Notes: generated by a model not told the origin, from the letters alone. Counted from the stretch's first letter, positions 11,433 to 48,384 are shown. The stretch is 64,000 nucleotides of DNA from a bacterium HR16 (GCA_002898895.1 BEHS01000001.1:7106-71105), one strand, 5' to 3'. Numbers and translations: made by a program.

Positions 11433-12349
11433 GAGGCTCCGACCCGCGCCCGTTGAGCCTGCGTGCCAGCGTCGTGACCATCGGCTCTTTCGACGGGGTG
11501 CACCGGGGACATCAGGCAATTATTCGTGTGGCTATCCAGCGCGCGCAGGAACTGCATATACCTGCTGTTGCGGTCACCTTTGACCGCCATCCACAGGAAG
11601 CCATTCAACCCGATAACGCGCCACCCTATTTAACCACCCTGACCAGTCGTCTGCGCCTGTTACTGAACACCGGGCTTCACGATGTGCTGGTTCTACGCTT
11701 CGACCGCGAGTTTTCCTCACTGCCTCCCGAAGCGTTTTTGCACTCGGTTCTGCAGAAGCACCTGAACGCGCGTCGTATCGTGGTGGGCAGGGATTTCCGC
11801 TTCGGGCATCGGCGGATGGGCAGTGTAGACTATTTACGGGAAGTGCAGGCGCGTTTCGGCTTCGAGGTGGAGGACGTACCGGACGTGCTGTACCGCGGCG
11901 AGCGCATCAGCAGTAGCCGAATCCGCCAGGCGTTGCTGGACGGCGAAGTGCAGGAGGCATCGGCTATGCTGGGCAGGGCGTATGTACTGGAGGGGATAGT
12001 GGTGCGCGGGAAACAGCTGGGCAGGAAACTGGGCTATCCGACGGTAAACCTGAGCCTGCGCGCGCCCCAGCTGGTACCGAAAGATGGAATCTACGCAGGA
12101 AAACTACTACACCCGCGTACGGGCAACAGCTACACGGCGGCGATTAGCATCGGCGTGCGCCCTACCGTGGACGGCACGAAGCGCACCATCGAAGCGTACC
12201 TGCTTGGTTTTTCAGGCAGTCTGTATGGTGAGGAGGTGCACCTTGCCTTCTTTCACCGCCTGCGTGACGAACGCAAGTTCGAGTCTTTACAGGCGCTGAG
12301 GGCGCAGATGGATAAAGACGTGCAACAGGTGGTGGAGCTGATGGGGTAA
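11429..12349 (+). CDS. ribF: bifunctional riboflavin kinase / FAD synthetase
   Basis: GSFDGVHRGHQ nucleotidyltransferase motif. Riboflavin-kinase C-terminal domain. Confidence 0.9.
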   Translation: MRGSDPRPLSLRASVVTIGSFDGVHRGHQAIIRVAIQRAQELHIPAVAVTFDRHPQEAIQPDNAPPYLTTLTSRLRLLLNTGLHDVLVLRFDREFSSLPPEAFLHSVLQKHLNARRIVVGRDFRFGHRRMGSVDYLREVQARFGFEVEDVPDVLYRGERISSSRIRQALLDGEVQEASAMLGRAYVLEGIVVRGKQLGRKLGYPTVNLSLRAPQLVPKDGIYAGKLLHPRTGNSYTAAISIGVRPTVDGTKRTIEAYLLGFSGSLYGEEVHLAFFHRLRDERKFESLQALRAQMDKDVQQVVELMG

Positions 12350-12363
12350 GAGTTCACCACATG

Positions 12364-12388
12364 GAGGGCGAGGCTCCGTCCGAGCCGA
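12364..12388. repeat. family-2 hairpin repeat (GGAGGGCGAGGCTCCGTCCGAGCCG), solo copy
   Basis: Same 25-mer at 46616-46640 and inverted at 62025-62052. GGCTC/GAGCC stem. Confidence 0.55.
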
Positions 12389-12409
12389 CATACGGGCAAG
12401 AATAAAGGG

Positions 12410-18104: not shown

Positions 18105-18245
18105 GTTATGCTGAACGAAGTGAAGCATCTCCGAGATTCTTCGCTTCGCTCAGAATGACAACCTTTTACTGTCGTGCTGAGCGTCAGCGAAGCATCTCAG
18201 CGTGACGATAAAACGAGATTCTTCGCTCCCCCTCAGAATGACAGG
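18105..18245. repeat. family-1 hairpin repeats (GTCATTCTGAGCGAAGCGAAGAATCTC paired with GAGATGCTTCGCT..CTCAGCATGAC), two units
   Basis: Imperfect inverted 27-nt arms. Further clusters at 22157-22294, 23423-23603, 38174-38250 and 46481-46592. Confidence 0.65.
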
Positions 18246-22156: not shown

Positions 22157-22294
22157 TTGTCATGCTGAGCGTTGGCGAAGCATCTCGCTCTTTTTGTCAT
22201 GCTGAACGCAGTGAAGCATCCCGGAGATTCTTCGCTCCGCTCAGAATGACAGGGAAACCAGCCCATCGTGCCATGCTGAGCGAGGCATCTCATT
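22157..22294. repeat. family-1 hairpin repeat cluster (four arms)
   Basis: TTGTCATGCTGAGCG..GAAGCATCTC and GAGATTCTTCGCTCCGCTCAGAATGACAGG. Confidence 0.6.
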
Positions 22295-23422: not shown

Positions 23423-23603
23423 CCTGTCATTCTGAGCGCAAGCGAAGAATCTCGCTCCATCGCCACAAAAAGATGCTTCGCTCACGCTCAGCATGACAGT
23501 AAACGGTTGTCATTCTGAGCGAAGCGAAGAATCTCCAAGATGCTTCACTTCGTTCAGCATGACAAAAAGGCGGGATGCCGAGCGTCAGCGGAGCATGACA
23601 AAA
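23423..23603. repeat. family-1 hairpin repeat cluster (five arms)
   Basis: CCTGTCATTCTGAGCGCAAGCGAAGAATCTCGC ... GATGCTTCACTTCGTTCAGCATGACAAA. Confidence 0.6.
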
Positions 23604-31961: not shown

Positions 31962-31973
31962 CACATCCGCGTG

Positions 31974-32110
31974 GAGGGCGCACCTGCCGGCAAGCCGGTT
32001 TAGCCCCCACCCCAGCCCTTCCCGCGAGCGGTGAGGGAGCGGTTCCTCCCCCGTCCACGGGGGAGGTCAGGAGGGGGCTTCACACGGCTCGGCAGGAGCC
32101 TCGCCCTCCA
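31974..32110. repeat. MITE-like composite element (137 bp) with about 25-bp terminal inverted repeats and central CCTCCCCC-GTCCAC-GGGGGAGG hairpin
   Basis: About 85% identical to 39647-39773. TIR GGAGGGCGCACCTGCCGGCAAGCCG / CGGCTCGGCAGGAGCCTCGCCCTCC. Confidence 0.65.
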
Positions 32111-32117
32111 TGCGGGC

Positions 32118-32837
32118 TTATATTGTTATCCGCCGCCTCAACAGTCTACCCGTACCCAGCAACCCGGCTAGCATCAGCGAGAGCGTCCCTCCTTCAGGAA
32201 CCGCTTGAGGGGTAAATCCCCCTTCCGGCGTCAGGATGAAATCCTGCGAGCGTGTGCCGTTGCCGGGCAAGGGCGCGTCGTACAGAACACCGTTGAGAAC
32301 GCCCAGGCCGTTCCATGCCTGCAGATAGCTCTGCGCCAGCGTAAGGGTCAGGCTATCGATAGAGCTGCGGTTTGTGCCGTTGAACACGTTCGTCACGCGA
32401 AAGCGTCCGCTGCCGAACGGGTCCGCCCCAAAGCCATCATACAGAGCCTCCCAGATGGCTAACTGCAGGGCGGCACGACCGCGTGCATCCGTAGCGGATG
32501 GACGGTTCTTCCACAACGCCCCCATCGCCCAGTCCGCGCGGCGCCCGTCGTCCAGCGCAGTAGCAGCGGTGTTCTTTTGCACAGCATCCCACGAACCACT
32601 CGCCACCGCCTGCTTCAGGTCTACACACCATGCTTCCTTTGGCAAGGGGTATCCCCCAACATTCAGGCGCACTGCGCCGATATATACCCAACGGGTGCTA
32701 CCGTCCAGAACGGTATCGGCGGTGTAGCTGTTATCGTAATTGTGCAGGCTGATAGTAACTGCGCTGGCGCTACTGGCGAGCACAAACCCAATCACCAGGC
32801 TCAAAATCCATCTCCTCATCAGACACTCCTCCTTCAC
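32118..32837 (-). CDS. PEP-CTERM sorting-domain secreted protein
   Basis: Signal peptide. C-terminal VPEGGTLSLMLAGLLGTGRLLRRR (PEP-like motif, TM helix, Arg-rich tail). Probable start at 32819. Confidence 0.6.
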   Translation of the reverse strand: MKEECLMRRWILSLVIGFVLASSASAVTISLHNYDNSYTADTVLDGSTRWVYIGAVRLNVGGYPLPKEAWCVDLKQAVASGSWDAVQKNTAATALDDGRRADWAMGALWKNRPSATDARGRAALQLAIWEALYDGFGADPFGSGRFRVTNVFNGTNRSSIDSLTLTLAQSYLQAWNGLGVLNGVLYDAPLPGNGTRSQDFILTPEGGFTPQAVPEGGTLSLMLAGLLGTGRLLRRRITI

Positions 32838-34051: not shown

Positions 34052-35308
34052 TTATCCCAACACCACCAGCGCGTCCTCCGGCGTGGTGACCACCTGCGCC
34101 CCGCTTGCCTTCAGCCGCTCTATGATTTCCATCGCCTGCCCGCTGGTGAAGTCGCGCTCCTGCCAGTTGCAGTCCGCCAGCAGCACCCGTTTGCCCGCCC
34201 GTTGCGCCTCCTCTACCGCCTGCAGGTTCGCCAGGTTGCCGTATCCAAACGCCACCGGCGCAACGAGTATCGCATCCGCCCTCGCCAGCGCGTCGCGCAG
34301 TAGGGCAAGGCTCTCGGCTGAGATGGGCGTGAACGGCGCCTCCGTGATGACCTCTGCGCCCAGCTCCTGCGCTACCTCCTCGTCGCTATCCAGCAGGTGC
34401 AACACCCCCACCGAAAGATGCCATCCCGCCCGCGCCAGCGCGCCAATCCATCCCGCGCCCGTCCCTCCACCGCAGATCACGTGCACACGCCTGCCGTTGC
34501 CCGCCTGCGACTCCACGTGCTGTAACGTGCGTGGCAACACATGCGGACGCCCCGTCGCCGGATTCACCCGTACCCACGCATCCAGACCGAACACCCGCGC
34601 CAGCAGGGAGGGGGTAATCACCTCCGACGGCGCACCGTCCGCCACCAGCTGCCCCTGTCGAAGCACAACCAGCCTGTCGCAGAACTCTGAAGCGAGGTTG
34701 ATGTCGTGTAGCGCCGCCAGCACCGTCAACCCCTCTTCGCGATTGAGCTGGCGCAGTAGCGAAAGCGTGCCCACCTGATGCGCTACGTCTAGGTGCGTCA
34801 ACGGCTCGTCCAGAAACAGCAAGGGCGTCTCCTGCGCTAACCCACGCGCCAGCACCACCCGCTGACGCTCGCCACCGCTGAGCGTGCCGAAAGCGCGTTC
34901 CGCCAGCGACAGGCTGTCCGTGCGCTCCATCGCCCGCCGAGTCGCCTGCATGTCCTCCGCGCGCTCTTTGCCCCACCAGCCGATGTACGGCGCGCGCCCC
35001 AGCAACACCACCTCCCACGCGGTGAAACCGAACGCCACGTCCTCACGCTGGGGCACAAACGCCAGCCTCTGCGCCACATCCTTCGCCCGCAGCTGAGCCA
35101 GCGGTTGTCCGTCCAGCCACACCTGTCCCTTTTGCGGCTTTAACACTCCGCTGAGCACGCGCAACAGCGTGGACTTGCCGCTGCCGTTCGGTCCCAGCAA
35201 GCCCACAAACTCACCGCGCGAGATACACAGGTTGATGCCCTTCAATACAGGCGTTGCACCGTATCCCGCCCAGATATCTTCAGCACGTACGATTTCTGTA
35301 TTCACCAT
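34052..35308 (-). CDS. ABC transporter ATP-binding protein (FecE/BtuD-like) fused to a C-terminal about 170-aa domain of unknown function
   Basis: Walker A GPNGSGKST, ABC signature LSGGERQR, Walker B LLFLDEP, H-loop. C-terminal extension with GGGTGAG Gly-rich loop. No adjacent permease or substrate-binding genes. Confidence 0.75.
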   Translation of the reverse strand: MVNTEIVRAEDIWAGYGATPVLKGINLCISRGEFVGLLGPNGSGKSTLLRVLSGVLKPQKGQVWLDGQPLAQLRAKDVAQRLAFVPQREDVAFGFTAWEVVLLGRAPYIGWWGKERAEDMQATRRAMERTDSLSLAERAFGTLSGGERQRVVLARGLAQETPLLFLDEPLTHLDVAHQVGTLSLLRQLNREEGLTVLAALHDINLASEFCDRLVVLRQGQLVADGAPSEVITPSLLARVFGLDAWVRVNPATGRPHVLPRTLQHVESQAGNGRRVHVICGGGTGAGWIGALARAGWHLSVGVLHLLDSDEEVAQELGAEVITEAPFTPISAESLALLRDALARADAILVAPVAFGYGNLANLQAVEEAQRAGKRVLLADCNWQERDFTSGQAMEIIERLKASGAQVVTTPEDALVVLG

Positions 35309-35311
35309 TGC

Positions 35312-35340
35312 TTGACAATCCGCTTGTCCGGTGCTATGAT
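35312..35340 (+). promoter_or_regulatory. sigma-70 consensus promoter TTGACA-N17-TATGAT
   Basis: Perfect -35, 17-nt spacer, -10 TATGAT. About 75 nt upstream of the HAF-protein start. Confidence 0.5.
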
Positions 35341-35416
35341 TGCTCCGCCAGCTCGGCATAAGTTTCGCCCGTTCCCACCCGGGCGAGCCTCACTGTGAGA
35401 AAGGAGTGGAAACGAA

Positions 35417-36916
35417 ATGGTTCGCCTATCAACCCTTTACGTTTTCGCCTGCGCGTTCTCCTTCGCGCTGAGCCTCTCTGCCGTCCACGCTCAGTATACC
35501 ATCACCGACCTGGGCGCGATCACCGCTAACGGGCAAAGCCGCGGCTACGGCATCAACAACCTCGGCGAAGTCGCCGGATGGTCGGATGGACACGCCTTCT
35601 TCTGGACAGGCGGTGTGCTCATAGACCTCGGCGTGCTGTCGGGTACCGCCAGCGAAGGGCGCGATGTCAACGACCTCGCACAGGTGGTCGGCTGGAGCGA
35701 TGCCGCACAGGCGCGCCATCCCTTTATCTGGAAAGACCTCAACGGCAACCGCCTCGCCGACCCGGGCGAGATGGTGGACCTGCGTCCCATCCCCAATACC
35801 TGGCAGGGCAGAGCGTACGGCATCAACAACGCCGGGCACGTGGTAGGGTGGTCTGCTATCAACCCCGATGGGGTGTACCACGCCTTCCGCTGGAGTTACA
35901 ACACAGGCGGCTGGTGGGACTGGTTTGACCTCGGCAACATCACCGGCAATCCCGACGAAATCAGCCTCGCTAACGACATCAACAACCTCGGACAGGTGGT
36001 GGGAGGCTCCGGCTCGGCGGGCAGCCGACGCGCTTTCCGTACACAACCCTACGCCGCTATCAACCCGCTCACCGATGCCCTGCCCTATCTGCCCAACGGC
36101 ACAACCGCCGAAGCCTTCGGCATTAACGACCGGGGTCAGGTAGTGGGCTTCTCCAACACGCGCGTGGGAACCAGCACCCTCACCCGTCCCGTACTGTGGG
36201 AGGGCAGTTCTGTTATCGATCTGGGCACACTGGGAGGCAATATCGGACGCGCGTACGGCATTAACAACCTCGGGCACGTCGTGGGACACTCCTATCTGTC
36301 GGACAACATCTCCTTACGCGCCTTCCTGTGGGTGAACGGTGTGCTTCGCGACCTCAACGACCTCCTGCCGCCAGGTTCCGGCTGGGTGCTCAACGAGGCG
36401 CGCGCCATCAACAACTTCGGACAGATTACCGGCTACGGCGCACACAACGGCATTACTCGCGCGTTCCTGATGACACCTGTGCCTACCACCGTCACCGTAA
36501 ATCTGGACGGCTACACGGGCGATTACTCCAGATTGCCCCTGCAGGTGGAGGTGCGCTCGACAACAGGGGAGACTCTGCTTACGTTCAGCCCAGCACTGAA
36601 CGCCGACGGTACGTTTCCCCTCACCCTCACGCCGACGACCTATACCCTCGCCTTCAAGGCAGACCGCTCCCTGCGCCGCGTGCTGACAGGCATCACCGTG
36701 CCGGCGGGAACCCTGGCGGTGAACCTCGTCAACGGCGACGCCGACGGCGATAACGAGGTCAGCCTGTTCGATTTCGGTAAACTGGTCGGCGCGTTCGGTA
36801 AGCTGGATGGAGAGGAGGGCTTTGAACCCACCGCCGACTTCGACGGCGACGGCGAAATCAGCCTGTTCGATTTCGGCATCCTGGTGCGTAACTTCGGGGA
36901 AGTAGGAGATGAATAA
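35417..36916 (+). CDS. secreted HAF-family repeat protein with C-terminal carboxypeptidase-regulatory-like and dockerin-like domains
   Basis: Signal peptide. Six or more GINNxGxVVGWS HAF repeats. C-terminus NGDADGDNEVSLFDFGKLV...DFDGDGEISLFDFGILVRNFGEVGDE paralogous to the 15028-17064 C-terminus. Confidence 0.7.
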   Translation: MVRLSTLYVFACAFSFALSLSAVHAQYTITDLGAITANGQSRGYGINNLGEVAGWSDGHAFFWTGGVLIDLGVLSGTASEGRDVNDLAQVVGWSDAAQARHPFIWKDLNGNRLADPGEMVDLRPIPNTWQGRAYGINNAGHVVGWSAINPDGVYHAFRWSYNTGGWWDWFDLGNITGNPDEISLANDINNLGQVVGGSGSAGSRRAFRTQPYAAINPLTDALPYLPNGTTAEAFGINDRGQVVGFSNTRVGTSTLTRPVLWEGSSVIDLGTLGGNIGRAYGINNLGHVVGHSYLSDNISLRAFLWVNGVLRDLNDLLPPGSGWVLNEARAINNFGQITGYGAHNGITRAFLMTPVPTTVTVNLDGYTGDYSRLPLQVEVRSTTGETLLTFSPALNADGTFPLTLTPTTYTLAFKADRSLRRVLTGITVPAGTLAVNLVNGDADGDNEVSLFDFGKLVGAFGKLDGEEGFEPTADFDGDGEISLFDFGILVRNFGEVGDE

Positions 36917-36977: not shown

Positions 36978-37295
36978 CTACCGGCTCCACACCGCCACCT
37001 TCACTGCGGGGGCGTTTCCTATTTTCAGCGTGACCACCCTCCGCACCGTGTAGCCTGCTCCGTCGCGGGAGATACTGTCGCCCTCGTTCAGCACCTCGTC
37101 TGCCGCTGTGACCCCTGCCCACATCGGACGGCTGAAACCCAGCAGGTCGTTGTCGGTAAACAGACTGCGCAACAGCCCGCTCGTCGCCACAAATACCACC
37201 ATGCGCACCGTGCGCGTGCCGTTCACTGTCACATCCTCACCGTGCCGCTTCACCAGCGACCTCAGCCGTTCTGCTCGCGTCGACATCTGCCTCAC
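36978..37295 (-). CDS. phage head-tail adaptor-like protein
   Basis: Size and position at the distal end of the head module. Weak recollection-based similarity. Confidence 0.3.
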   Translation of the reverse strand: MRQMSTRAERLRSLVKRHGEDVTVNGTRTVRMVVFVATSGLLRSLFTDNDLLGFSRPMWAGVTAADEVLNEGDSISRDGAGYTVRRVVTLKIGNAPAVKVAVWSR

Positions 37296-37715
37296 CTACC
37301 AGCCCAGCATCGACTGCTCAGAAACCTGCCGCTCCCGATGGCGCGTGGTGGATTGCGTGTATATCGGCTTCAGGAACGGCATGAGCCTCGCCCATCCACG
37401 CTGAATCAGACCGTACGGGTCGCCCAAATCGGCACGCGACTGAGGGCTTTCACCCACTCGTACACCGCCCGCCTCGAACGCCTCTGTTGCTCCTTCCTCG
37501 CGCAACCGCTGTGCCAGAAACTCACCCGCGATAATCTCCGTCGCGCCCCGACTGAGCACCGTATCCAGCGTGCTATCCGCCAGCGCGTCCGATGACAGCG
37601 TGTACTCTATCACAGGAACCAGGTCGGCAATGAGCGCATCGATCTGCGCGTCGTAAGCGGTGGACGATACCGCTGCCGTGCGCTTCACCGCCTCTCGTGT
37701 GACCGTAATCGCCAT
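37296..37715 (-). CDS. phage gp6-like head-tail connector protein
   Basis: Typical size. N-terminal MAITVTREAVKRTAAVSSTAYDAQIDALIADLVPVIE pattern resembles gp6-like connector proteins. Confidence 0.4.
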   Translation of the reverse strand: MAITVTREAVKRTAAVSSTAYDAQIDALIADLVPVIEYTLSSDALADSTLDTVLSRGATEIIAGEFLAQRLREEGATEAFEAGGVRVGESPQSRADLGDPYGLIQRGWARLMPFLKPIYTQSTTRHRERQVSEQSMLGW

Positions 37716-37728
37716 CTGCCACCTCCCC

Positions 37729-37932
37729 CTACGCCTGCTGCACTACCTGCCACTTGCGGAAGTTCTCGGCGATGTCGTCCAGCTTAACGGCGCGGAAGTC
37801 CCATACGTCGCCTTCCTGCACGGCAACCCCGAACAGCTTCTGGATAGCTGTAGCGGAGACAGATACTCGCTCTCCGGTGTCTATGTCCACGAAGACGATG
37901 TTCGTTCCAGCGGTCTTCACGTATGCTCTCAT
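37729..37932 (-). CDS. hypothetical phage-module protein
   Basis: Small ORF co-directional within the phage block. Confidence 0.3.
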   Translation of the reverse strand: MRAYVKTAGTNIVFVDIDTGERVSVSATAIQKLFGVAVQEGDVWDFRAVKLDDIAENFRKWQVVQQA

Positions 37933-37935
37933 GGC

Positions 37936-38244
37936 TCACCACTCCTGTACTTGCTTGATGATGTGTTCACGTATCGCTTCTTCGATGGCGTAAACGAGCG
38001 CAACGTCCACCTTCAACCTGTCCGCTAACCTCTCTCTCGTAGCCTGCGGTAACCGTAGCGCCCGCTCTTCCAGCCATCGCAGTACCAGCTGTTTCAGAAC
38101 TCTCTTCACCGTTGTCTCTCCTGATAGTCTGTCAGGTGTGATTCTCGTGGCTGTGGCGAGGCGGTCTTGCCTTGCTGTCATTCTGAGCGAAGCGAAGAAT
38201 CTCGTGTTATCGCCACTCCGAGGTGCTTCGCTGATGCTCAGCAT
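37936..38244 (-). CDS. hypothetical phage-module protein (N-terminal part of ORF overlaps a family-1 repeat, so true start probably internal)
   Basis: First about 30 codons are the translated family-1 repeat (SISEAPRSGDNTRFFASLRMT). Likely starts near VKRVLKQLV. Confidence 0.25.
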   Translation of the reverse strand: MLSISEAPRSGDNTRFFASLRMTARQDRLATATRITPDRLSGETTVKRVLKQLVLRWLEERALRLPQATRERLADRLKVDVALVYAIEEAIREHIIKQVQEW

Positions 38245-38250
38245 GACAAG
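38174..38250. repeat. family-1 hairpin repeat unit
   Basis: GCTGTCATTCTGAGCGAAGCGAAGAATCTCG ... AGGTGCTTCGCTGATGCTCAGCATGACAAG. Confidence 0.6.
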
Positions 38251-38305
38251 GGTGCCAAACTACTCTGCCTGCATCTAAACAATCAGGTTCGACGCGCTCG
38301 CGTCA

Positions 38306-39379
38306 CTAGAGTTGAGTCGCTACCAGCGTGCCCCTGAAGGTCCCCGCAGCAGCGCCAGTGTTCTTCACCTTCACGCGGAAGTTACGAGAACCGTATATCT
38401 GCATGATAGGCGACGACACATAGTACCGAACCACAGCATCTGTCGTGGCATCGGTGCTTGTGCCGTACCACACTACCTGCCAGTTGCTGCCGTCTACCTG
38501 CGCTTCTACCCATGCACTGAACGGCTGGTCTCCCATGAAGTGCGCCTGGATGTGACACTGCTCGGTGTAGAATGCGCGGCTGCTTCCTGTACCCACCGAA
38601 CCCGCAGCGAGAGCGGAGAAGGTGTCCGTTACGCTCTGGATGGAACCCAGGCTGGAAGTGCTGGGGACAGAAGCGAACGGCGTATTCGTGAGCCTGACGG
38701 GAAGTGCCATTGCGTCCACATGATGCCCCAGTGCCCCAGGTGGAATGATATCCGCCAGCTGATATGCGGTCACACGATGCACCTTCAGCGTACTGGTTCC
38801 CGCAAGACCAGCAAGCCGAACGCGGAACGGTCCATCGGGAATACCGCTTTCCACATACCGATACACTTCATTGCGGGTGTTCAGGCTGTTGATAGCGCGA
38901 TACGCCCAGATGGCTTCACCAAACCCGACGTAGATGGTCGCCAGCCTGTAGGTGTTGTTGGCTGCACCGACGCTCATGCTGGTCTGGTCTGAAACCACAC
39001 CACCAGCACTCATCCGCGCATCCATGTAGCTGCTGGTGGTACCTGTTGCGCCCCACTCCACCAGGTTGCCGTCGTCGGTATAGAAACCGAAGCGGAAGTT
39101 ATCGGTAGATGCGCGGGCAGTCATGGTCTCCACCACTTCTATCAGGCAGGGCGGCTGGAAACTCTGCTTGCTGAGCAGCACGACGCCGCTGGTGATGGAT
39201 AGCTCGCCGTTCAACGGAATGGGACTGCCTGATACCACTTCCCACTTGTCGGCGTTCAGCGCACCGTTGAAGTCGTCACTCAGCCAGTGCAGAACCTGTC
39301 CACCCGCTACCGGAAAGGGCGTGTCACTCCGCACCGCCTGCCATCGCCCCATCGTATCTGTGAAGCGCAACCTCCTCAC
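38306..39379 (-). CDS. phage-module structural protein of unknown function (357 aa)
   Basis: Large ORF immediately downstream of the major head gene block. No recognisable motifs. Confidence 0.4.
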   Translation of the reverse strand: MRRLRFTDTMGRWQAVRSDTPFPVAGGQVLHWLSDDFNGALNADKWEVVSGSPIPLNGELSITSGVVLLSKQSFQPPCLIEVVETMTARASTDNFRFGFYTDDGNLVEWGATGTTSSYMDARMSAGGVVSDQTSMSVGAANNTYRLATIYVGFGEAIWAYRAINSLNTRNEVYRYVESGIPDGPFRVRLAGLAGTSTLKVHRVTAYQLADIIPPGALGHHVDAMALPVRLTNTPFASVPSTSSLGSIQSVTDTFSALAAGSVGTGSSRAFYTEQCHIQAHFMGDQPFSAWVEAQVDGSNWQVVWYGTSTDATTDAVVRYYVSSPIMQIYGSRNFRVKVKNTGAAAGTFRGTLVATQL

Positions 39380-39621
39380 TCCTTTCTGCTTGTCGCCCGG
39401 CGTGCATGGTTCAACTTCACGCAGGCAAGAGTTTCTTTCAGAGCCTGAAGTGCCTCAGTGTTTCCCCGCACCGCCTGCTCCAGCCGTGTCAGATGCTCCC
39501 GAAGCGTCTGCTCCTGTGCCTGAATGATGCGCTCCAGCGCGCGCAGCGTCAACCGCGCAAACGCCCATTGCGCCGACACCATCGCCCCGATGAGCGTCAA
39601 AACCTGTACTCCGATCTCCAT
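39376..39621 (-). CDS. small membrane-anchored coiled-coil protein (phage module)
   Basis: ATG at 39621 (MEIGVQVLTLIGAMVSAQWAFA TM helix, then heptad-like region). Longer track ORF upstream is translated MITE repeat. Confidence 0.35.
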   Translation of the reverse strand: MEIGVQVLTLIGAMVSAQWAFARLTLRALERIIQAQEQTLREHLTRLEQAVRGNTEALQALKETLACVKLNHARRATSRKE

Positions 39622-39646
39622 GATGCACCTCCTCTGCCCCCTGTCT

Positions 39647-39773
39647 GGAGGGCGAACCTGCCGGTGAGCCGATTTAGCCCCCACCGCGCGCAGGGAGAGA
39701 GCGGTTCCTCCCCCGTCCACGGGGGAGGTCAGGAGGGGATATTTCGTACGGCTCGGCGGGAGCCTCGCCCTCC
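39647..39773. repeat. MITE-like composite element (second near-identical copy)
   Basis: About 85% identity to 31974-32110 including TIRs and the central GGGGGAGG hairpin. Followed by a family-3 repeat at 39780-39803. Confidence 0.65.
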
Positions 39774-39835
39774 CCCATTGGAGGGTCGTGCTCCGTCGCG
39801 ACCACAAACGCACCCGACAGGTTCACCGCGAATCG

Positions 39836-40762
39836 CTAGCTCGCGTTACTGCCGTAAGCAGTCTGCCACAAACCGTAGCCCACGCCGTAACGCGCTCGCG
39901 CGCCGTAATACACCACGTCCCGCAGGAACACACTCTCGCTCACCGACGGGTCCTCCAATGCCGAGAACTCCACCGGCACATCCGACCGCTCCTGCAGAAT
40001 CACCGCACGCACCGCCCGGCTGGTGTCCAGCACAAACCACTGATTGCCTGTGATATACGGGCTGACCACCAGCCTCAGCGCACCTTGCAGCACGTTGCGA
40101 TACGGTGTGTTGTCACCCGTGCCCGCTTTGACCACCACCACCTGCGACTCCAGCAGCTCCATCGCCGCCCAGCGCAGGCGTGGACCCACCAGCAACGTAT
40201 CCGGCAGGATGCCCAGCGGCACGCCCTGATCGTCCTTGAACAGCATCATGCTGGAGATAGCGCTCTGCAGGCTGTCGGGATTCAGCGGTTGGGTGGTGAC
40301 GTTGCTCTGTGTGCCGCTCTCGCCCTCCGAGTGTGCGCTGGAGAAGAGCGGTTGACCGTCGTAGCACGTCTGGCTGAACCCGTCCAGTAACGCTTTCACC
40401 ACCAGATAGTCCTTGTGCCGTGCCGCCTCGCGCCCCAAATCCTGCACCCGCAGTCGGATGGCTCCAATCTGTTCGTCCTCCAGAGCGCGTCTCTCTACCG
40501 CTATTGTGCTCTCCCACACCGTGTCCTGAATGGTGTAGTTATATGCCCGTAAGCCCTTCGGCATGCGCTCGTCCACAAACTCGCGCATCGCAGGCACACT
40601 GCCCAGCCACCCGTACTTCTGCACAGGCAGCTCGGTCTGAATCACCGTTGCAATCTGCGGATAAATCGCCGACTCCACCTGCCGTCGATACGCCTCAAAA
40701 AAGTCTGCACGCAAACCCGCCTCCAGCAAGGCGCCCATTTCGCTCCGTGTAATCGCTGGCAT
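39836..40762 (-). CDS. Mu-like prophage major head subunit (gpT family)
   Basis: Length about 305 aa and conserved gpT-like blocks (YPQIATVIQTELPVQKYGWLG..., QGVPLGILPDTLLVGP, NQWFVLD). Confidence 0.7.
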   Translation of the reverse strand: MPAITRSEMGALLEAGLRADFFEAYRRQVESAIYPQIATVIQTELPVQKYGWLGSVPAMREFVDERMPKGLRAYNYTIQDTVWESTIAVERRALEDEQIGAIRLRVQDLGREAARHKDYLVVKALLDGFSQTCYDGQPLFSSAHSEGESGTQSNVTTQPLNPDSLQSAISSMMLFKDDQGVPLGILPDTLLVGPRLRWAAMELLESQVVVVKAGTGDNTPYRNVLQGALRLVVSPYITGNQWFVLDTSRAVRAVILQERSDVPVEFSALEDPSVSESVFLRDVVYYGARARYGVGYGLWQTAYGSNAS

Positions 40763-40776
40763 TGTCTCTCCTCCTC

Positions 40777-41190
40777 TTACCGCACCGCGTTATCGATACG
40801 AATGCGTGCTTGCGTCGCCGAAAGCACCTCCACCACGTAACCCACCAGCTGGTTGTTGGTGGAAGTGGTGGTCAGCGTGTTGTCGTCCGCTGCGTACATC
40901 GCCTGCCCCACGCTTGCCTGCGTGAAGCCGCTCCCGTTATACACGTAAGTGCCACTCTTCCACACGCGCACCGACCTCGCGCCCGCCGCACCGCCTGTGT
41001 TGTCCACACCTTCAAACGCTACTCCCACGAACACATCGCTGCTTGTGCCGCTGCGCGATGGGTAGGCGTAACCGTCACTGCGCACGCTCACCAGCGCACC
41101 TTTGTAAATCACCGTGTTCGCGCCCACCTTGTAACTCACCAGCTCGCCCGGCTTGTCCTGTGGGTCGTACGCGCTCGTCAACGCTGCCAT
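40777..41190 (-). CDS. phage head decoration/cement-like protein (DUF2190-like)
   Basis: Gly/Ala-rich 137-aa protein directly upstream of the major head gene. Typical GALV..G..Y motif pattern. Confidence 0.4.
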   Translation of the reverse strand: MAALTSAYDPQDKPGELVSYKVGANTVIYKGALVSVRSDGYAYPSRSGTSSDVFVGVAFEGVDNTGGAAGARSVRVWKSGTYVYNGSGFTQASVGQAMYAADDNTLTTTSTNNQLVGYVVEVLSATQARIRIDNAVR

Positions 41191-41193
41191 CTC

Positions 41194-41976
41194 CTATCGC
41201 CTCCTTCCTTCCGACAGATAACGGGCAATCTGCTCGGGGGACAGGTCGCCCCAGTACTTGCGCAGGAACGCCTCCTCTTCCACGCTCAGCGTGTGCTCCT
41301 GCTCGCCTGCAGGTGCGATCTCGCCAAAACGCACAGTCGGCGGCAACGCCTCCACAAAACGGGCGAACACCTCCGCCACGCTCGCGCTACCGCCTGCAAA
41401 GGTCACTGCCTGCGTGCCCTGCAGGAGCAGTGTCTTCGCCATCTCGCGCGTCGCCGGCGTCAGCTTCCCCTGCCTAAGCCATCGCTGCAACGTCTCCTCT
41501 ACCTGTCGCTCGCGCAGGGCAAACTCTGCCGCCTCCGCCCGCCGACGCAACGCCTCCATGTCCTGTTCCAACGCGGTCACCTCCGTCAAAAGTATCTCGC
41601 CCGAAAAAGCCACCGCGCCCGCACTCAGCAGGCGCGCATCCGCCACACGCGGAGTCGCGGTCACCGACACCTCCACAATCCGCTTCAGGTCGGGCGTCAC
41701 CGCCACGCTGATGCCGCGAATGCCCAGCCGTTTCAGCAACGCCTCCGCTTCCGGCAGCAGGGTCAGCCGCCCGAACAGCTCCTTGCCCCGTCGCCACAAC
41801 CGCTTCAGCTCTCCAATCTGCCATCCCTGCGACAGGTGCTCCACCATCAGCGGAACCGGCGCGGTGAAGCCCTCCACCAGCGATTGCAACTGCTCCTCGC
41901 CCACTTCCAGCCCCTTGTCGGGATAGGAGCCGGCTTCAAACAGCTTCGCCTCTCGCTCCACTTCCAACGCGCTCAC
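41194..41976 (-). CDS. Mu-like prophage protease/scaffold (gpI-like)
   Basis: Position directly upstream of decoration and major head genes. Central coiled-coil (ALEQDMEALRRRAEAAEFALRERQVEETLQRW) typical of scaffold. Confidence 0.45.
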   Translation of the reverse strand: MSALEVEREAKLFEAGSYPDKGLEVGEEQLQSLVEGFTAPVPLMVEHLSQGWQIGELKRLWRRGKELFGRLTLLPEAEALLKRLGIRGISVAVTPDLKRIVEVSVTATPRVADARLLSAGAVAFSGEILLTEVTALEQDMEALRRRAEAAEFALRERQVEETLQRWLRQGKLTPATREMAKTLLLQGTQAVTFAGGSASVAEVFARFVEALPPTVRFGEIAPAGEQEHTLSVEEEAFLRKYWGDLSPEQIARYLSEGRRR

Positions 41977-42195
41977 CTCCTTCCACCCTGTACAGCAGAA
42001 AAGCAGACATTTGTCAACCTTTTTCTAATCGAAGGGCGAGGATCCCCCAATCGCCTGTCTTACGGTTCAGACTTTGAATAACCAGGCGATTTGCAGGATT
42101 GCGGGAAAAATCGGCGAAAAAACCGTCAAGTGATGGTACAATGATTGTGCATATATAACGTGGGACAAAGCGCGTCGGGTTGAGGCTATAGAAGC

Positions 42196-42978
42196 ATGGA
42201 GGAGCTGACAGTAACAATCGGAGCAGGAGGGGAACAGGTTGACTTAAATGACATCAGTCAACTTGCGAACCATTTCTGCAAGGCGATACGGGAATTGGCG
42301 CGCGAGCTCACAGGTCAGGAAAAACCCCGTGTCGACATACCTGTCGTACGGGTCGCATCTGGCAGTGTTGCAATGACAATAGGGCCAATGTCCCGTACGC
42401 AAAGCAGTGAGAGCCTCCCGCTGGCGAAATACGTGTTTGAAGACCTGTCTGGCATTCTCGCCCAAACACCGCGTCCTACTATGTCCGTCGACCTGTACAG
42501 GGCTTACACCGAAGTTATTCGTGCACCCCGCAATACCATACCGTACTCCGTGCTGTACGGGAAACGCTTTATCGAAGTCAACGAGCAGGTCAGGCAGCAG
42601 GTGCATCAGATGTCCGAGTACATTCGCGTTCCGCATGCTTCCGTGGTCGGCACTATCGAGAGTGTAAACATTCACAGGATGCCTTATGTTTTCATGCTTT
42701 ATACAAAAGTGGAGCCACGCCAGCACGTCGAATGCCGATTCAGAGACGACGAGTTCCTTCCTGCGGTCACCGACATCCTGAAATCCAGAAAGATGGCAGA
42801 GATAAAAGGAACCGCATACTATGCTCCTGTAGGCATCTTTCCTCTCAGGATAGATGTAGAGGAGCAACCCATGAAGCTGGAATATTCCCCTGAAGACCTC
42901 CTGAGCTATGTGGGACGATTACACATTGTCCCCGAGGGCGTGACAGTGGAGAAATATCTGGAACGAGAGTGGGAGTAA
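42196..42978 (+). CDS. hypothetical protein (260 aa), partner of downstream PIN-domain protein
   Basis: ORF in a lower-GC segment preceded by an extended -10-like TGgTACAAT at 42134-42142. 8-nt gap to the PIN gene. Confidence 0.5.
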   Translation: MEELTVTIGAGGEQVDLNDISQLANHFCKAIRELARELTGQEKPRVDIPVVRVASGSVAMTIGPMSRTQSSESLPLAKYVFEDLSGILAQTPRPTMSVDLYRAYTEVIRAPRNTIPYSVLYGKRFIEVNEQVRQQVHQMSEYIRVPHASVVGTIESVNIHRMPYVFMLYTKVEPRQHVECRFRDDEFLPAVTDILKSRKMAEIKGTAYYAPVGIFPLRIDVEEQPMKLEYSPEDLLSYVGRLHIVPEGVTVEKYLEREWE

Positions 42979-42985
42979 CCTATCG

Positions 42986-43501
42986 ATGCCAGAAGGTTCT
43001 GATAATAAACCTCGCTATTATTGGGACACTTGCTGTTTCATTCACGTTCTGGACGTTCACAGCAGGAAACGGGCAGCGCAAGATGAGCAGGCGCAGCAGA
43101 TGGTCTTTTTTCTGGAGCAGGCGTTCCGCGAGGCTGTGGAAGGCAAGGTACAACTGGTCACGGCTGAATTGCTTCTGGCAGAGATCCTACCTGTAGATGA
43201 TGACCATAAGAACTTTCTGAAACAGGTTAAAGCCTGCCCCTACATCGAGCTGTTAGCGGTAAGCAGGCAAGTTTTTGAACTGGCTGGACGTCTACGTGCG
43301 GAGTGGCGCACGCACAGCAGGAGCGACCTCAAAACGCCCGATGCCGTTCACATTGCTACTGCGCTACTCTTTAAGCCCGATGAGATGTGGACTACTGATG
43401 ACCGCATCTTGAAATTGTGTAATCCGAGCGAGGGCACATACGGAGAATTGCGGATTGTGCGCCCCCATGCCCTTCCACAAATGCGTCTCCCTGACCTATA
43501 G
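42986..43501 (+). CDS. PIN-domain protein (VapC-like ribonuclease)
   Basis: Acidic PIN residues in YYWDTCCFI, DAVHIATAL and TTDDRIL motifs. Confidence 0.8.
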   Translation: MPEGSDNKPRYYWDTCCFIHVLDVHSRKRAAQDEQAQQMVFFLEQAFREAVEGKVQLVTAELLLAEILPVDDDHKNFLKQVKACPYIELLAVSRQVFELAGRLRAEWRTHSRSDLKTPDAVHIATALLFKPDEMWTTDDRILKLCNPSEGTYGELRIVRPHALPQMRLPDL

Positions 43502-44307
43502 GAGGTGCGTGGCGGATGAACACCCTCTACTACGGCGATAACCTCGACATCCTGCGTAAACACCTGCAGGATGAAACAATAGACCTCATCTACCTCGACC
43601 CGCCCTTCAACAGCGCACGTGACTATAACGTGCTCTTCCGCGAGCAGTCGGGTGAACCCGCGCAGGCGCAAATCAAAGCCTTCACCGACACATGGCAATG
43701 GAGCGAACGCACCTACGTGCAGTTCTGCGAGGAGTGTCCCAAACCCGCCCTTGTGGAACTGCTACAGGGCTTCGTCAAAACACTGGGGCGCAACGATGTC
43801 ACCGCCTATCTGGTGATGATGGCGCCCCGACTGGTGGAACTGCACCGCGTGCTCAAACCCACCGGAAGCCTCTACCTGCACTGCGACCCCACCGCCAGCC
43901 ATTACCTCAAGGTGATGCTCGACGTCATCTTCGGAGCGCGTAACTTCAAAAACGAGATCGTGTGGAAACGCACCAGCGCACATAGTGGGGCAAAAAGATG
44001 GGGACCTGTTCATGACACCGTTCTGTTCTATACAAAGAGCGATACATACACGTGGAACAAAGTTTTCAGCCAGTTTGATGCTAAGTACGTCGAGGAGTTC
44101 TACAGATACGAGGACGATAGAGGCAGGTATCAGCTGGTAGACCTTACAGGAGCGGGAGTTCGCTATGGGGAGTCAGGTCAGCCTTGGAAAGGGGTGAACC
44201 CCACTGCTGTTGGCAGGCATTGGGCAGTTCCGCAAAAGCTGGTAGAGGAAGTGGTTGGGAGGGAACGCGCGTCGCAATTAAGTGTGCAAGAGAAACTGGA
44301 TGCACTA

Positions 44308-45492
44308 GTACTTGACCTCTCATCAATCTTGTGGTATAATCTCGCTAATTTGCTAACAGGAGTGCAACCATGCGAAAATACAGCGTCCAATTGACCGAGC
44401 AAGAACACGAGCAACTGACCGACATCATCCGCAAAGGCAAAGCACCTGCCAGACAGATCACCCGCGCCCACATCCTGCTCAAAGCACACAACGGCGAACG
44501 CTACGCCGACATCGCCCACGCTGTGGGGGTCAGCGAGGTCACCGTCACCACCGTCTGTCGGGAGTTCCAGACGCTGCGCACCGACGCCATCTATCGCAAA
44601 CGCCCCAATCGCGTGTATGCCCGCCGACTGGACGGCGCAGCAGAAGCGCAGTTAATTGCTCTGGCTTGCAGTGCGCCACCGGAGGGACGGGCTTCGTGGA
44701 CGATGCAGTTGCTGGCAGACCGGATGGTGCAGTTGGAGGTGGTGGAGACCATCTCCGCCGAGACAGTGCGTCGTACGCTGAAAAAAACGACCTTAAGCCT
44801 TGGCAGAAGCGTTTCTACTGCATCCCCCCAGAGGCAAACGCGGCGTTTGTAGCGGGGATGGAGGACGTGTTAGACGTGTATCAGCGTGCTTACGACCCCC
44901 ACAGACCGGTGTTATGCCTGGATGAGTTGCCGGTGCAGTTAGTGGGTGAAGTGTTCACGCCGTTGCCGATGGAGCGAGGCAAGCCGAAGCGCGAGGATTA
45001 CGAGTATAAGCGGGAGGGCACAGCGAGCGTGTTCATGGTGTTTGAGCCGCTGGCAGGCAAGCGTTATCTGTTTGTGCGCTCCCGTCGCACAGCGTGTGAT
45101 TGGGCGGAGGTGATGCAGCAGATAGCAGACGAGTTATATCCTGAAGCGGAGCGGATAGTGATGGTGATGGACAATCTGAACACGCACGATGTGGCGTCGC
45201 TGTATAAGCGTTTTGTGCCTTCGGAGGCGTGGCGATTGCGTCAGCGTTTTGAGATACACCACACACCGGTTCACGGTAGTTGGTTAAACGTGGCGGAGAT
45301 CGAGTTAAGCGTGTTAGTGCGTCAGTGTTTGGAACGTCGGATAGGGGATATAGGGGCGTTAGACCGGGAGGTACAGGCGTGGGCGCGGTTGCGCAATGAG
45401 GCGTGCGCTTGTGTGGACTGGCAGTTCACGACGGCGGACGCCCGCATCAAGTTGAAGCGTCTCTACCCAAAGATTGAGGAGAGGTGATGTAC
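44308..45492 (+). mobile_element. IS630/Tc1-mariner family insertion sequence (1185 bp) with TA target-site duplication
   Basis: Imperfect 23-bp terminal inverted repeats GTACTTGACCTCTCATCAATCTT / AAGATTGAGGAGAGGTGATGTAC flanked by TA (44306-44307 and 45493-45494). Two overlapping transposase ORFs. Confidence 0.85.
44370..45487 (+). CDS. IS630-family transposase (orfA HTH plus orfB DDE, joined by programmed -1 frameshift)
   Basis: Slippery A7 run A_AAA_AAA_C at 44782-44788. orfA ...LKKTTLSLG in frame 0, and -1 frame continues [18 protein letters not shown]... with the DDE region. Confidence 0.75.
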
Positions 45493-46480
45493 TAGAAGAG
45501 GCAGGCTATATTGTATGGCCCGAGAAAGGGCGAGTGCCCCGCTACAAACGGTATCTGGACATGAACCCCGGTAACCTCATTCAGGACGTTATCACCGACA
45601 TCAACCCGATTTCCTCTCAAGCCCGTGAGCGTCTTGGCTATCCCACACAGAAACCTATCGCCCTGCTGGAGCGAATCATTCTCGCGTCCAGTAACGAGGG
45701 CGACGTAGTGCTGGACCCCTTCTGCGGATGCGGAACCGCCATCGTCGCCGCCCAGAAGTTGAAACGCCACTGGGTCGGCATCGACATCACTCATCTTGCC
45801 ATTGCGCTCATCAAATACCGTCTCGCCGACATGTTTGACCTGCGTGAGGGCAAAGACTACCTCGTTGTCGGCGAACCCACCACCGTCGAGGACGCCCGTG
45901 CCCTTGCCCATCATGACCGCGACGAGTTTCAGCGGTGGGCAATCGGGCTTATCCCCCGTGCCCGTCCCTATCAAGACAAAAAAGGCGCGGACACCGGCAT
46001 CGATGGCGTGCTCTTTTTCAAAGACGACCCAGACGACCCCAAGAAGGTGGTGATTCAGGTCAAAAGCGGGCACGTGGGTGTGAAGGACATTCGCGACTTT
46101 CGTGGGGTGATGGAGCGCGAGAAAGCCACTCTCGGCTTGTTCGTTACCCTTGACGAACCCACCCGCGCCATGCAGACCGAAGCGGAGAGCGTCGGCTTCT
46201 ACGTCACCCCGCTGGGCAAACTGCACCTGCCTCGCCTGCAGATTCGCACCGTCGAGCAGCTCCTGCGCGGCGAGGGTTTCCAGATACCCGGTGCGGCGAT
46301 GCTGATGGGCGTCTCCCGTGCCGAGCGCGTGCAAGAACAGTTCCGCCAGGGCGAGCTGGAGATGTAATCACGCGGACAGTGTTCACCTGCCCTGTCTTGT
46401 CCGGCAGCCGATGCTATAGACCCTGTACTGTAGAGCGCCAAGGCACGACTGCTTGAATGGGAGCAGACCGTTTCCACTTA

Positions 46481-46592
46481 CTTGTCATTCTGAGCGAAGC
46501 GAAGAATCTCGTTGTATCGCCACCCTGAGATGCTTCACTTCGTTCAGCATGACAACAAAATCCTGTCATTCTGAGCGAAGCGAAGAATCTCA
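46481..46592. repeat. family-1 hairpin repeat cluster (three arms)
   Basis: CTTGTCATTCTGAGCGAAGCGAAGAATCTCG / GAGATGCTTCACTTCGTTCAGCATGACAAC / CCTGTCATTCTGAGCGAAGCGAAGAATCTC. Confidence 0.6.
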
Positions 46593-46930: not shown

Positions 46931-47611
46931 CTACTTATTCCTTATCCGAAACAGCCTCTTCGTCGCCTGAGCAGGAGCACGCCCGTCCAGCAGGATGCGG
47001 GCGATATCGGCGTACATACGCAGGCGAGCCATCGTGCCGCGCAGTCGCCCCAGCTTCTCCTCCTTCATCGGATGGGTGACGCCATACAGCGCGACGTACT
47101 TTACCCGCCACCGCTGGCGCACCGCCCAGCGCGTGATTTGCGTCTCCACGCCAAAGCGGGCGAACTGCACGTTGGGCACCTCAAGGAACAGCTCCCGCCG
47201 GATAGCCCTCTGCCCGCTCACGAAGGGAAACAGCTTCTGCGCGAGGTCGGTAGCACGTCTGCCACCACGAAACACCCCAAGCGTCATATCCGCATCGCCA
47301 CAGCGTACCGGTTCCACAAGGCTATCCACGTGTTCAGGAGTCAGCCCGATCAGGTCGGCATCCAGAAACACAATCACAGGCGACTCGGTGTGGCACGCCC
47401 CAACGTGCATCGCTCCCCCCTTGCCAAGATTCTGAGGAAGCTGTAGCGCACGCACCCCGTCGAACCGGCGAGCAACCTCGTAAGTGCCGTCCAGAGAACC
47501 GTCGCTGACCACCACAATATCGTCCACCAGCGACGCTGCGCGCACCGCCTCCAGCACCCGGGGCAGGCGTGTCTCCTCGTTATAGGCGGGGATAATGGCG
47601 GTAACTCTCAT
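46931..47611 (-). CDS. GT2 family glycosyltransferase
   Basis: IPAYNEE...VVVSDGSLDGT...LDADL motifs (DxD). Last gene of a minus-strand operon. Confidence 0.75.
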   Translation of the reverse strand: MRVTAIIPAYNEETRLPRVLEAVRAASLVDDIVVVSDGSLDGTYEVARRFDGVRALQLPQNLGKGGAMHVGACHTESPVIVFLDADLIGLTPEHVDSLVEPVRCGDADMTLGVFRGGRRATDLAQKLFPFVSGQRAIRRELFLEVPNVQFARFGVETQITRWAVRQRWRVKYVALYGVTHPMKEEKLGRLRGTMARLRMYADIARILLDGRAPAQATKRLFRIRNK

Positions 47612-48384
47612 TGCCCCGGCGTCGCGCTCGGAGATTGCCGATTAGGCAACTGAGCAATCAGCTTCTTCGCCCGCAGGATGCGGTTCTCTGTTAACGGGTG
47701 GGTGCGCAAGTTCGCCAGCAGTCCCTTCATGGGGCTTTTCTCCAGCTTCTGCAGCTTCTCGAAGAAGCGCACCAGCCCTTCCGGGTCGTAACCGGCGGCA
47801 TGGGTGTACAGGATGCCTCGACGGTCGGCATCGTACTCGTCGTCGCGGCTGTATTGTAGCATCACCAGCGAGGTAGCAATGCTTGCCACCTTCTGTGCGC
47901 TGCCCTTTGTGCCCAGCGAGATAGCGATGTCCGCCAGGATACTGCTGGAAATCTGCTTCGCTGCATGATGCGCCACGATGTGCCCCACCTCGTGCGCAAC
48001 TACCGCCGCCAGCATATCTTTGTCATCGCCAACCTGCTCCATCAGCCCACGAAAAACGTACACCGGACCCCCTGGCAAAGAGACCGCGTTGATCTCCTTG
48101 GTATCGAGCACCTTGAAGGTGAAGGGGAAATCCGGTGCGCGCTTGCCCTCCGTCTGGCGCATTCCCTGTAGCACACGCTGCCCGATTTCCTGCACCAGCG
48201 CCACGCGCTCGGGGTTGGTGTCCAGCCTGTACTCCTTCTCAATCGCCGCCGAGCCCTCTTTACCGATTTGAATCTCGTCCTGCTTGCTCAACAGGTTCGT
48301 GCCGCGACAGCTCATTAGCGAGAGCATCGCCGACACGACGAGAAAAAGCAACCCGATCCGCCCGAACCATATTGTGCGTGTCAT
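47608..48384 (-). CDS. M48 family zinc metallopeptidase (lipoprotein-like)
   Basis: HEVGHIVAHH zinc-binding motif. Signal peptide/lipobox-like LSLMSC. Confidence 0.8.
   Translation of the reverse strand: MTRTIWFGRIGLLFLVVSAMLSLMSCRGTNLLSKQDEIQIGKEGSAAIEKEYRLDTNPERVALVQEIGQRVLQGMRQTEGKRAPDFPFTFKVLDTKEINAVSLPGGPVYVFRGLMEQVGDDKDMLAAVVAHEVGHIVAHHAAKQISSSILADIAISLGTKGSAQKVASIATSLVMLQYSRDDEYDADRRGILYTHAAGYDPEGLVRFFEKLQKLEKSPMKGLLANLRTHPLTENRILRAKKLIAQLPNRQSPSATPGQ

Follow-up and report, generated by a model that had tools for sequence, protein, structure and literature searches.

A phage head-and-neck module, probably of ancient domestication, in the chromosomes of Armatimonadota

Only a handful of lineages are, to our knowledge, known to have domesticated phage particles, and the tail is retained in every case. 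Gene transfer agents (GTAs; RcGTA-type and other viriforms) are coded by phage structural genes that are fixed in the chromosome, inherited vertically, held under purifying selection, partly dispersed over several loci and devoid of replication or integration functions; known GTAs encode head and tail together. Tailocins (R/F-type pyocins) are half a phage particle kept as a selected chromosomal module, in which the tail is retained and the head is lost. The other systems close to the genes described below are Mu-like phages (Mu, B3/D3112-like, FP_Mushu) and the phage-inducible chromosomal islands that form capsids (cf-PICIs). The latter code for capsid, protease, portal, adaptor and connector proteins, have no tail or lysis genes, and are mobile islands of 10–18 kb that carry an integrase, replication and regulation modules, HNH, and the small and large terminases, TerS and TerL (10.1101/2025.02.11.637232). 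The locus in question lies at positions 36978–41976 of a 64,000-nucleotide stretch of bacterium HR16 (GCA_002898895.1, BEHS01000001.1:7106–71105), the whole of which is called the window hereafter, and codes, together with a nearby portal gene, for the head and neck of a tailed phage. Its genes are intact, under purifying selection and diverge in step with the surrounding host genes. The preferred reading, to which a probability of roughly 65% is given, is that they form an anciently domesticated, vertically inherited head-and-neck module resembling a GTA. The module shares with GTAs all the features listed above except the last, no tail gene adjoining it in 80 species; it also differs in having a capsid of Mu gpT type and in its host phylum, for which the literature searched describes no GTA. 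It is the reverse of a tailocin.

Nine tightly packed ORFs occupy the minus strand from 41976 to 36978 (Table 1), with the coordinates reported in a preliminary description of the window, whose proposals for the main head proteins are borne out. In profile searches the major capsid protein matches Mu-like_gpT (E = 2.4e-65) and phrog_371 (2.8e-68), so that its alignment to Mu gpT holds. The cement protein, described earlier as decoration-like, exceeds the Phage_cement_2 cut-off (30.9 bits versus 24) and matches phrog_1731 (5e-27). For the gpI-like protease/scaffold the matches are to phrog_976 “head maturation protease” (5.5e-10) and to PF10123 (E = 4.5e-4, under the Pfam cut-off); both are weak and confined to the carboxyl-terminal scaffold-like part (residues ~130–230), and its profile found no match among PDB sequences. 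In the family alignment, residues His47 and Ser90 of its amino-terminal domain are invariant in 35/35 chromosomal homologues and present in 4–5 of 5 viral ones. The former portal candidate, which lies ~3 kb from the head block and downstream of the head genes, is a Mu-type portal protein (Portal_Mu, E = 5.5e-71; phrog_113, 2e-75). The other six ORFs of the block have no Pfam or PHROG profile match.

Two of these six code for the neck. The preliminary description had seen gp6-like or adaptor-like connectors here, which prove to be an adaptor and a stopper. Searches with Pfam, PHROG and PDB-sequence profiles gave no match for either protein, and their structures were for this reason predicted from alignments of database homologues. 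In Foldseek the stopper model (pLDDT 92) matches the T1 stopper (8e-3) and the lambda neck protein (TM 0.69), as well as proteins of Pam3, Douge and R4C and SPP1 gp16; over all these matches the probabilities are 0.96–1.0 and TM reaches 0.69. Adaptor and stopper sequences concatenated as one query returned adaptor homologues only. With these identities the head block stops exactly at the head-tail interface.

Table 1. Features of the head-and-neck module and of the interval that separates it from the portal gene (L numbers designate compared loci; F5 is a protein family)
Feature	Position	Strand	Basis
Protease-scaffold fusion, Mu gpI-like, 260 aa	41194-41976	-	phrog_976, PF10123, invariant His47/Ser90
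Cement/decoration protein, 137 aa	40777-41190	-	PF09956, phrog_1731
Major capsid protein, Mu gpT type, 308 aa	39836-40762	-	PF10124, phrog_371
Dispersed hairpin repeat, MITE-like, in the capsid/small-protein spacer	39640-39810	.	Other copies in window
Small 81-aa protein with coiled coil and hydrophobic N-terminus, belonging to the conserved core	39376-39621	-	Start by RBS; F5 HMM
357-aa protein, no assigned function, clade-specific	38306-39379	-	Conserved in L003-L011
Another dispersed repeat, located in the spacer that follows the 357-aa gene	38165-38260	.	Other copies in window
57-aa protein, no assigned function, clade-specific	37936-38109	-	GTG start behind RBS, dN/dS
67-aa protein, no assigned function, clade-specific	37729-37932	-	Conserved in L003-L009
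Head-to-tail adaptor, 139 aa, HK97 gp6/Mu gpJ fold	37296-37715	-	
Stopper/head-closure protein, 105 aa, SPP1 gp16/lambda FII-like	36978-37295	-	Predicted structure and Foldseek
DUF3466/dockerin-type secreted repeat protein, insertion outside the module	35417-36916	+	Pfam
Orphan ABC ATPase with C-terminal alpha/beta domain, cellular gene	34052-35359	-	ABC_tran
Portal protein, Mu type, 364 aa	32932-34026	-	PF06074, phrog_113

Database searches gave 587 homologues of the capsid protein at E ≤ 1e-10; among the best 120 listed, all those with a named source belong to Armatimonadota. Lengths run from 302 to 354 aa, nearly all being 304–316 aa, and many of the homologues are encoded on contigs as large as 2.6 Mb. 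A scan with one genome per species found a relative in at least 130 species genomes. Neighbourhoods within ~10 kb of the capsid gene (1.3 Mb in total) were compared for the best 80 loci, which come from 80 species genomes (one locus per genome, all Armatimonadota where labelled), 82 loci being compared in all. Genes for scaffold, cement and capsid are collinear in 77–81 of the 82 (tblastn and de novo clustering). The protease-scaffold family is present in 71–77 loci, cement in 71–81, the adaptor in 50 and the stopper in 41, while a full-length capsid ORF is present in 80/80 genome loci. A small hydrophobic/coiled-coil protein is encoded between capsid and adaptor in most loci, and in 13–14 the portal gene stands no more than 10 kb from that of the capsid. 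Module genes are conserved at 35–68% identity across ~80 species. Gene order in the close relatives L004 and L006 is identical to that of the window, host genes included. A single row (scaffold, cement, capsid, two small proteins, adaptor, stopper, TerL, portal) is found in L068. The terminase-portal genes stand apart from the head genes, with position and strand varying among loci. No tail, integrase, replication or lysis gene adjoins the module in the 80 neighbourhoods.

Comparison with five close relatives gave dN/dS ratios of 0.04–0.06 for the capsid gene, 0.02–0.07 for cement, 0.08–0.27 for scaffold, 0.08–0.12 for portal, 0.10–0.18 for adaptor, 0.18–0.31 for stopper and 0.04–0.15 for the small 81-aa protein; the clade-specific genes coding the 357-, 57- and 67-aa proteins have 0.10–0.17, 0.17–0.30 and 0.21–0.26, respectively. 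All module genes thus fall between 0.02 and 0.31, and their dS is in the range of the flanking host genes. An internal control is provided by an antisense ORF (37660–38028, plus strand, 122 aa) that shadows small genes of the block: its dN/dS against the relatives is ~1 and it is therefore not a gene. It has a longer counterpart that shadows scaffold and cement (40762–42081, plus strand, 439 aa). A decaying prophage was one of the two outcomes first envisaged, that is a Mu-like prophage bereft of tail, terminase and transposase whose remaining genes drift to pseudogenes. The window indeed lacks terminase, tail and integrase genes, repeats have inserted within the block, and the portal gene is apart from the head genes and downstream instead of upstream of them. 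Decay is nonetheless refuted by the state of the genes: every one is intact and under the selection just described, the repeats lie in spacers and none in coding sequence, and the same genes, with capsids of 304–316 aa, recur in at least 80 species. The other outcome, a domesticated head module, is supported by the purifying selection, the host-gene-like dS, the conserved flanks and the breadth of distribution, much more firmly than a single window would allow.

Descent with the chromosome is also seen in the surroundings of the module. The more alike the capsids of two loci, the more alike are the flanking proteins that they share (Spearman 0.75, 194 pairs), and loci whose capsids are only 48–69% identical have flanks in common (dxr, rseP, a PLP decarboxylase, a class I tRNA synthetase and an AcrB/HlyD/OEP pump). 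Housekeeping genes flank or interleave the module: the portal gene has rpsD as its neighbour, aroC (chorismate synthase) separates stopper from TerL, and recR comes after the stopper gene. These data bear on the likeness to cf-PICIs. The module has the structural gene list of their packaging module (capsid, protease, portal, adaptor and connector, with tail and lysis genes absent), which suggests capsids that would attach to tails of another source, and true phage relatives occur in IMG/VR; an active mobile element that spreads horizontally, be it a temperate phage widespread in Armatimonadota or a capsid-forming PICI-type satellite, could then merely look conserved. This is very unlikely. Neither the window nor the examined neighbourhood genes contain an integrase, a replication or regulation module, HNH or a small terminase, and TerL is missing from the window. 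Unlike an island, the module is broken up by housekeeping genes and descends with the chromosome: its host flanks are kept at deep divergence, its dS equals that of host genes, there is one copy per genome among 80 species, and its composition is not anomalous, GC and GC3 of the head block being host-like.

The preliminary description reported that the window has no terminase, tail, integrase or transposase gene. The first three were indeed found in none of the ORFs of the 64 kb, and tblastn with the relatives' TerL found no terminase there; a transposase is present (IS630-type, see below). The view of the head module as stranded holds for the window, which has neither terminase nor tail; in relatives, however, TerL adjoins the portal gene. 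A TerL family (Terminase_6N, 2.5e-9; Terminase_6C, 1.7e-8) is coded directly upstream of the portal in L053, L059, L068 and L079, and in L030 TerL follows the capsid gene at 1.4 kb. In all, TerL is beside the portal or the capsid gene in eight relatives, distributed over both super-clades of the capsid tree. The terminase serving the module of the window would be encoded elsewhere in the genome.

The position held by TerL in L068 is occupied in the window by a gene for an ABC ATPase (ABC_tran, 4.5e-33), whose nearest PDB sequences are FhuC/HmuV (1e-54). The possibility that it is a diverged or substitute terminase was ruled out (hhalign against TerL, probability 0.5%). Its carboxyl-terminal domain has 620 cluster representatives, mostly in proteins of 410–440 aa (~425 aa), one of them named from Archaeoglobi. 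Since it has no homology to TerL and belongs to a widespread cellular two-domain family, it is treated here as a host gene, namely a cellular gene that became the neighbour of the portal in an ancestor of the window's lineage. The order capsid, small protein, adaptor, ABC ATPase, portal is the same in L025, L035 and L037, and in L025 the ATPase gene (11732–12994) overlaps or abuts those of adaptor and portal. The adjacency of ATPase and portal predates the split of lineages with 60–64% capsid identity, and its persistence is a further sign of descent with the chromosome. Note that four lineages retain this gene, which has no permease nearby, immediately upstream of the portal. The two genes between portal and head block had been taken as host-like and unrelated to it. 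This is correct for the DUF3466/dockerin gene, a recent insertion, and for the cellular nature of the ATPase; the latter is, however, a long-conserved neighbour of the portal. The DUF3466/dockerin gene is a younger insertion that varies among close relatives: only fragments are found in L007 and L008, and it is missing at this position in L025, L035 and L037.

Five 35-kb viral contigs of IMG/VR (L083–L087) are 49–50% identical to the window in capsid, 57% in cement, 36% in scaffold and 27% in portal. Their gene order (portal, MuF-like, protease-scaffold, cement, capsid, two small genes, Neck1/tail completion, 563-aa protein, tape measure, Dit) is that of a full siphovirus. Deposited phages have at most 38% capsid identity and are all Mu-like. 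Mu-like phages and the viral contigs share with the module homologous portal, protease-scaffold, cement and gpT capsid proteins and the internal order scaffold-cement-capsid, and the fold of the window's adaptor is that of Mu gpJ/HK97 gp6. The module differs in the downstream position of the portal gene and in being devoid of MuA/MuB transposase, MuF-like protein and tail; no ORF of the window has a Pfam match to MuA/MuB transposition genes or to a MuF-like head morphogenesis gene. The contiguous tail and large terminase of a Mu-like prophage are likewise absent from the window and the 80 neighbourhoods, except for TerL in eight. Of the viral contigs' proteins, only portal, scaffold, cement and capsid find homologues among the chromosomal loci (1.3 Mb), and adaptor and stopper HMMs have no match in the 35-kb viral relatives. 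Protease-scaffolds of the phages and of Fimbriimonadaceae have an extra amino-terminal domain of ~60–115 aa with a conserved GPGYRG motif (alignment columns 1–110; L083, 5991–7169), which was lost in the clade of the window.

Several observations weigh against an ancient, GTA-like domestication. A terminase gene is found neither in the window nor within 10 kb of the capsid gene in any close relative. Among the compared loci, 22 related to that of HR15 have only the scaffold-cement-capsid trio nearby. No tail-like gene occurs in the 1.3 Mb of chromosomal neighbourhoods. Nothing relevant on a GTA or capsid element of Armatimonadota, and no described GTA of this phylum, was found in the literature searched. 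Finally, in a neighbour-joining capsid tree the viral sequences attach between two chromosomal super-clades, with a rooting that is unreliable, and two captures from related phages are possible. A single capture is simpler to assume, since adaptor, stopper and small protein are common to the two super-clades and missing from the phage relatives.

The first two of these observations would be accounted for by a domesticated shell with a role other than DNA transfer (a protein compartment or a storage or delivery particle), the terminase having been lost in the lineage of the window. The HR15-like loci fit a portal-less shell in that clade, and the conserved small membrane/coiled-coil protein inside the module is unusual for phage heads. 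In HR16, though, portal, adaptor and stopper, which make the vertex for DNA entry and exit, are under purifying selection, and TerL is retained in eight relatives from both super-clades, so that such a shell is judged unlikely. An encapsulin-like nanocompartment, mentioned in the preliminary description, is improbable for this genome on the same grounds, portal, adaptor and stopper being conserved; moreover, the capsid protein matches phage gpT and not encapsulin models. In the HR15-like loci (L012–L024, L026–L034) no adaptor or stopper gene follows the capsid gene. Several of them code instead for 1–3 paralogous proteins of ~120–250 aa (family F15) and one of ~705 aa (F23), which have no Pfam or PHROG match.

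Measured against a complete GTA particle, the head and neck are complete, TerL was found in relatives only, and none of the 80 species has a tail gene within 10 kb. An ordinary, complete GTA with its tail and lysis genes at other loci of a scattered genome is a possible explanation, less probable than the one preferred here. The module is already dispersed, with terminase-portal apart from the head genes, its conserved adaptor and stopper imply a cognate tail, and the genome of the cultured armatimonadote Chthonomonas calidirosea is called “seemingly disorganized” in the abstract of a paper (PMC4959169). Against it stands the lack of any tail-like gene in the neighbourhoods, where even the tail proteins of the phage relatives have no homologue. 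The preferred reading, a vertically inherited GTA-like head-and-neck module, may be pictured as follows. The head-and-neck half of a tailed phage with a Mu-type (gpT) capsid would have been endogenised anciently and fixed in the chromosomes of Armatimonadota (Fimbriimonadia and related lineages). From the gene set, the cell would still assemble portal-bearing capsids under the direction of the scaffold; the capsids would be matured by the His47/Ser90 protease, stabilised by cement and filled with DNA by the large terminase encoded elsewhere. Adaptor and stopper would then seal them, giving a host-serving, GTA-like particle. From the conserved neck one would expect a tail to dock, and this tail could come from another locus of the scattered genome or from resident phages. 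A special form of the latter case is a non-mobile “head-only” viriform, whose DNA-filled, neck-capped capsids would be infectious only by way of the tails of unrelated resident or co-occurring phages. This is a doubtful proposal; if true, the element would be the host-owned counterpart of cf-PICI tail piracy and the mirror image of tailocins.

Two ORFs of the block had been noted to begin with translated repeat sequence, and their amino termini are indeed inflated in this way. The true start of the small protein is probably the ATG at 39621, preceded by AGGAGG (145 aa as called), and that of the 57-aa protein the GTG at 38109, preceded by GGAGAG (102 aa as called). The HMM of the Fimbriimonadaceae family F5 matches the 81-aa protein (E 4e-6 to 6e-4), whose membrane helix was assigned by visual judgement only. 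The 357-aa protein has no Pfam, PHROG or significant PDB match and its gene is found in L003–L011 only; a relation to the F15 paralogues that follow HR15-like capsid genes was rejected (hhalign probability 0.6%). The 67-aa protein is 46–73% identical across L003–L009. In comparison with L004, the segment with the genes for the 357-, 57- and 67-aa proteins (37729–39379) has a dS ~3 times that of its neighbours (0.9–1.2 versus 0.2–0.4) with dN/dS still at 0.1–0.3, and looks like a fast-evolving or recombining cassette.

The repeats reported inside the block are dispersed, with copies elsewhere in the window. That at 39640–39810 has a second copy at 31972–32109 as well as arm fragments, and that at 38165–38260 has copies at 18132–18244, 22224–22252, 23424–23535 and 46483–46591. 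Both are absent from the same spacers of close relatives, which measure 76 nt in L006 and 8 nt in L004, respectively; they are therefore recent insertions into spacers and have damaged no gene. A look-up of the exact capsid protein returned only contigs of 1.5–3.8 kb from the same strain. Two such short-read contigs end inside the hairpin repeat after the capsid gene (L001, 3800–3832; L002, 1501–1533), and this repeat family is thus abundant enough to fragment assemblies.

Upstream of the scaffold gene is a GC-poor (51–57%) island of 4.2 kb (42196–46367), unlike the head block in composition, that separates the block from a host GT2 gene. It codes for an unassigned protein of 260 aa, a PIN-domain protein and a fusion of an N6/N4 DNA methylase with an Mrr-like nuclease domain. 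The methylase gene is interrupted by the IS630-type DDE transposase (HTH and DDE_3, 44370–45487), which has no connection with the head block. L004 and L006 lack the island, and there GT2 directly precedes the scaffold gene. The remaining window is ordinary chromosome (an ECF sigma/anti-sigma pair, an S9 peptidase, nusA-ylxR-infB, nrnA, truB, ribF, ispH, sdhCAB, a rhamnosidase, glycosyltransferases and similar genes). It holds no tRNA and no Rfam family, hence no att-type landmark, and a promoter/terminator scan performed no better than chance. An M48 peptidase gene (47608–48384) is found 2–6 kb from the scaffold gene in the clade of the window and also in the distant L053 (5946–6722) and L079 (6325–7101), where M48 peptidase and Mrp-like ATPase genes lie between portal and scaffold; this proximity is either very old synteny or coincidence. 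Adjoining the portal gene, a PEP-CTERM-like secreted protein with a weak thioester-domain match (32118–32837) is conserved in L004 and L008. The DUF3466/dockerin protein has a paralogue coded at 15028–17064, the two secreted repeat proteins having in common a carboxyl-terminal dockerin-like tandem motif (DGDNEVSLFDFG...).

What is new in this locus, within the literature searched, is that the module comprises head and neck only, lies scattered among housekeeping genes and is conserved across one class of Armatimonadota. From its gene record, these bacteria probably go on producing capsids of phage type that serve ends of their own. At least one carrier genus includes a cultivated species, Fimbriimonas ginsengisoli (Gsoil 348), which makes work on putative particles and knock-outs feasible; its genome paper reports one inducible prophage of 45.5 kb only. 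The locus is also a caution for prophage finders, as the call of an “incomplete prophage” would hide a selected cellular trait. If the reading is true, the module would represent a new lineage of host-owned, virus-derived particles in a little-studied phylum, and it raises the question of where their tail comes from or what use a capped, tail-less capsid has for the cell.

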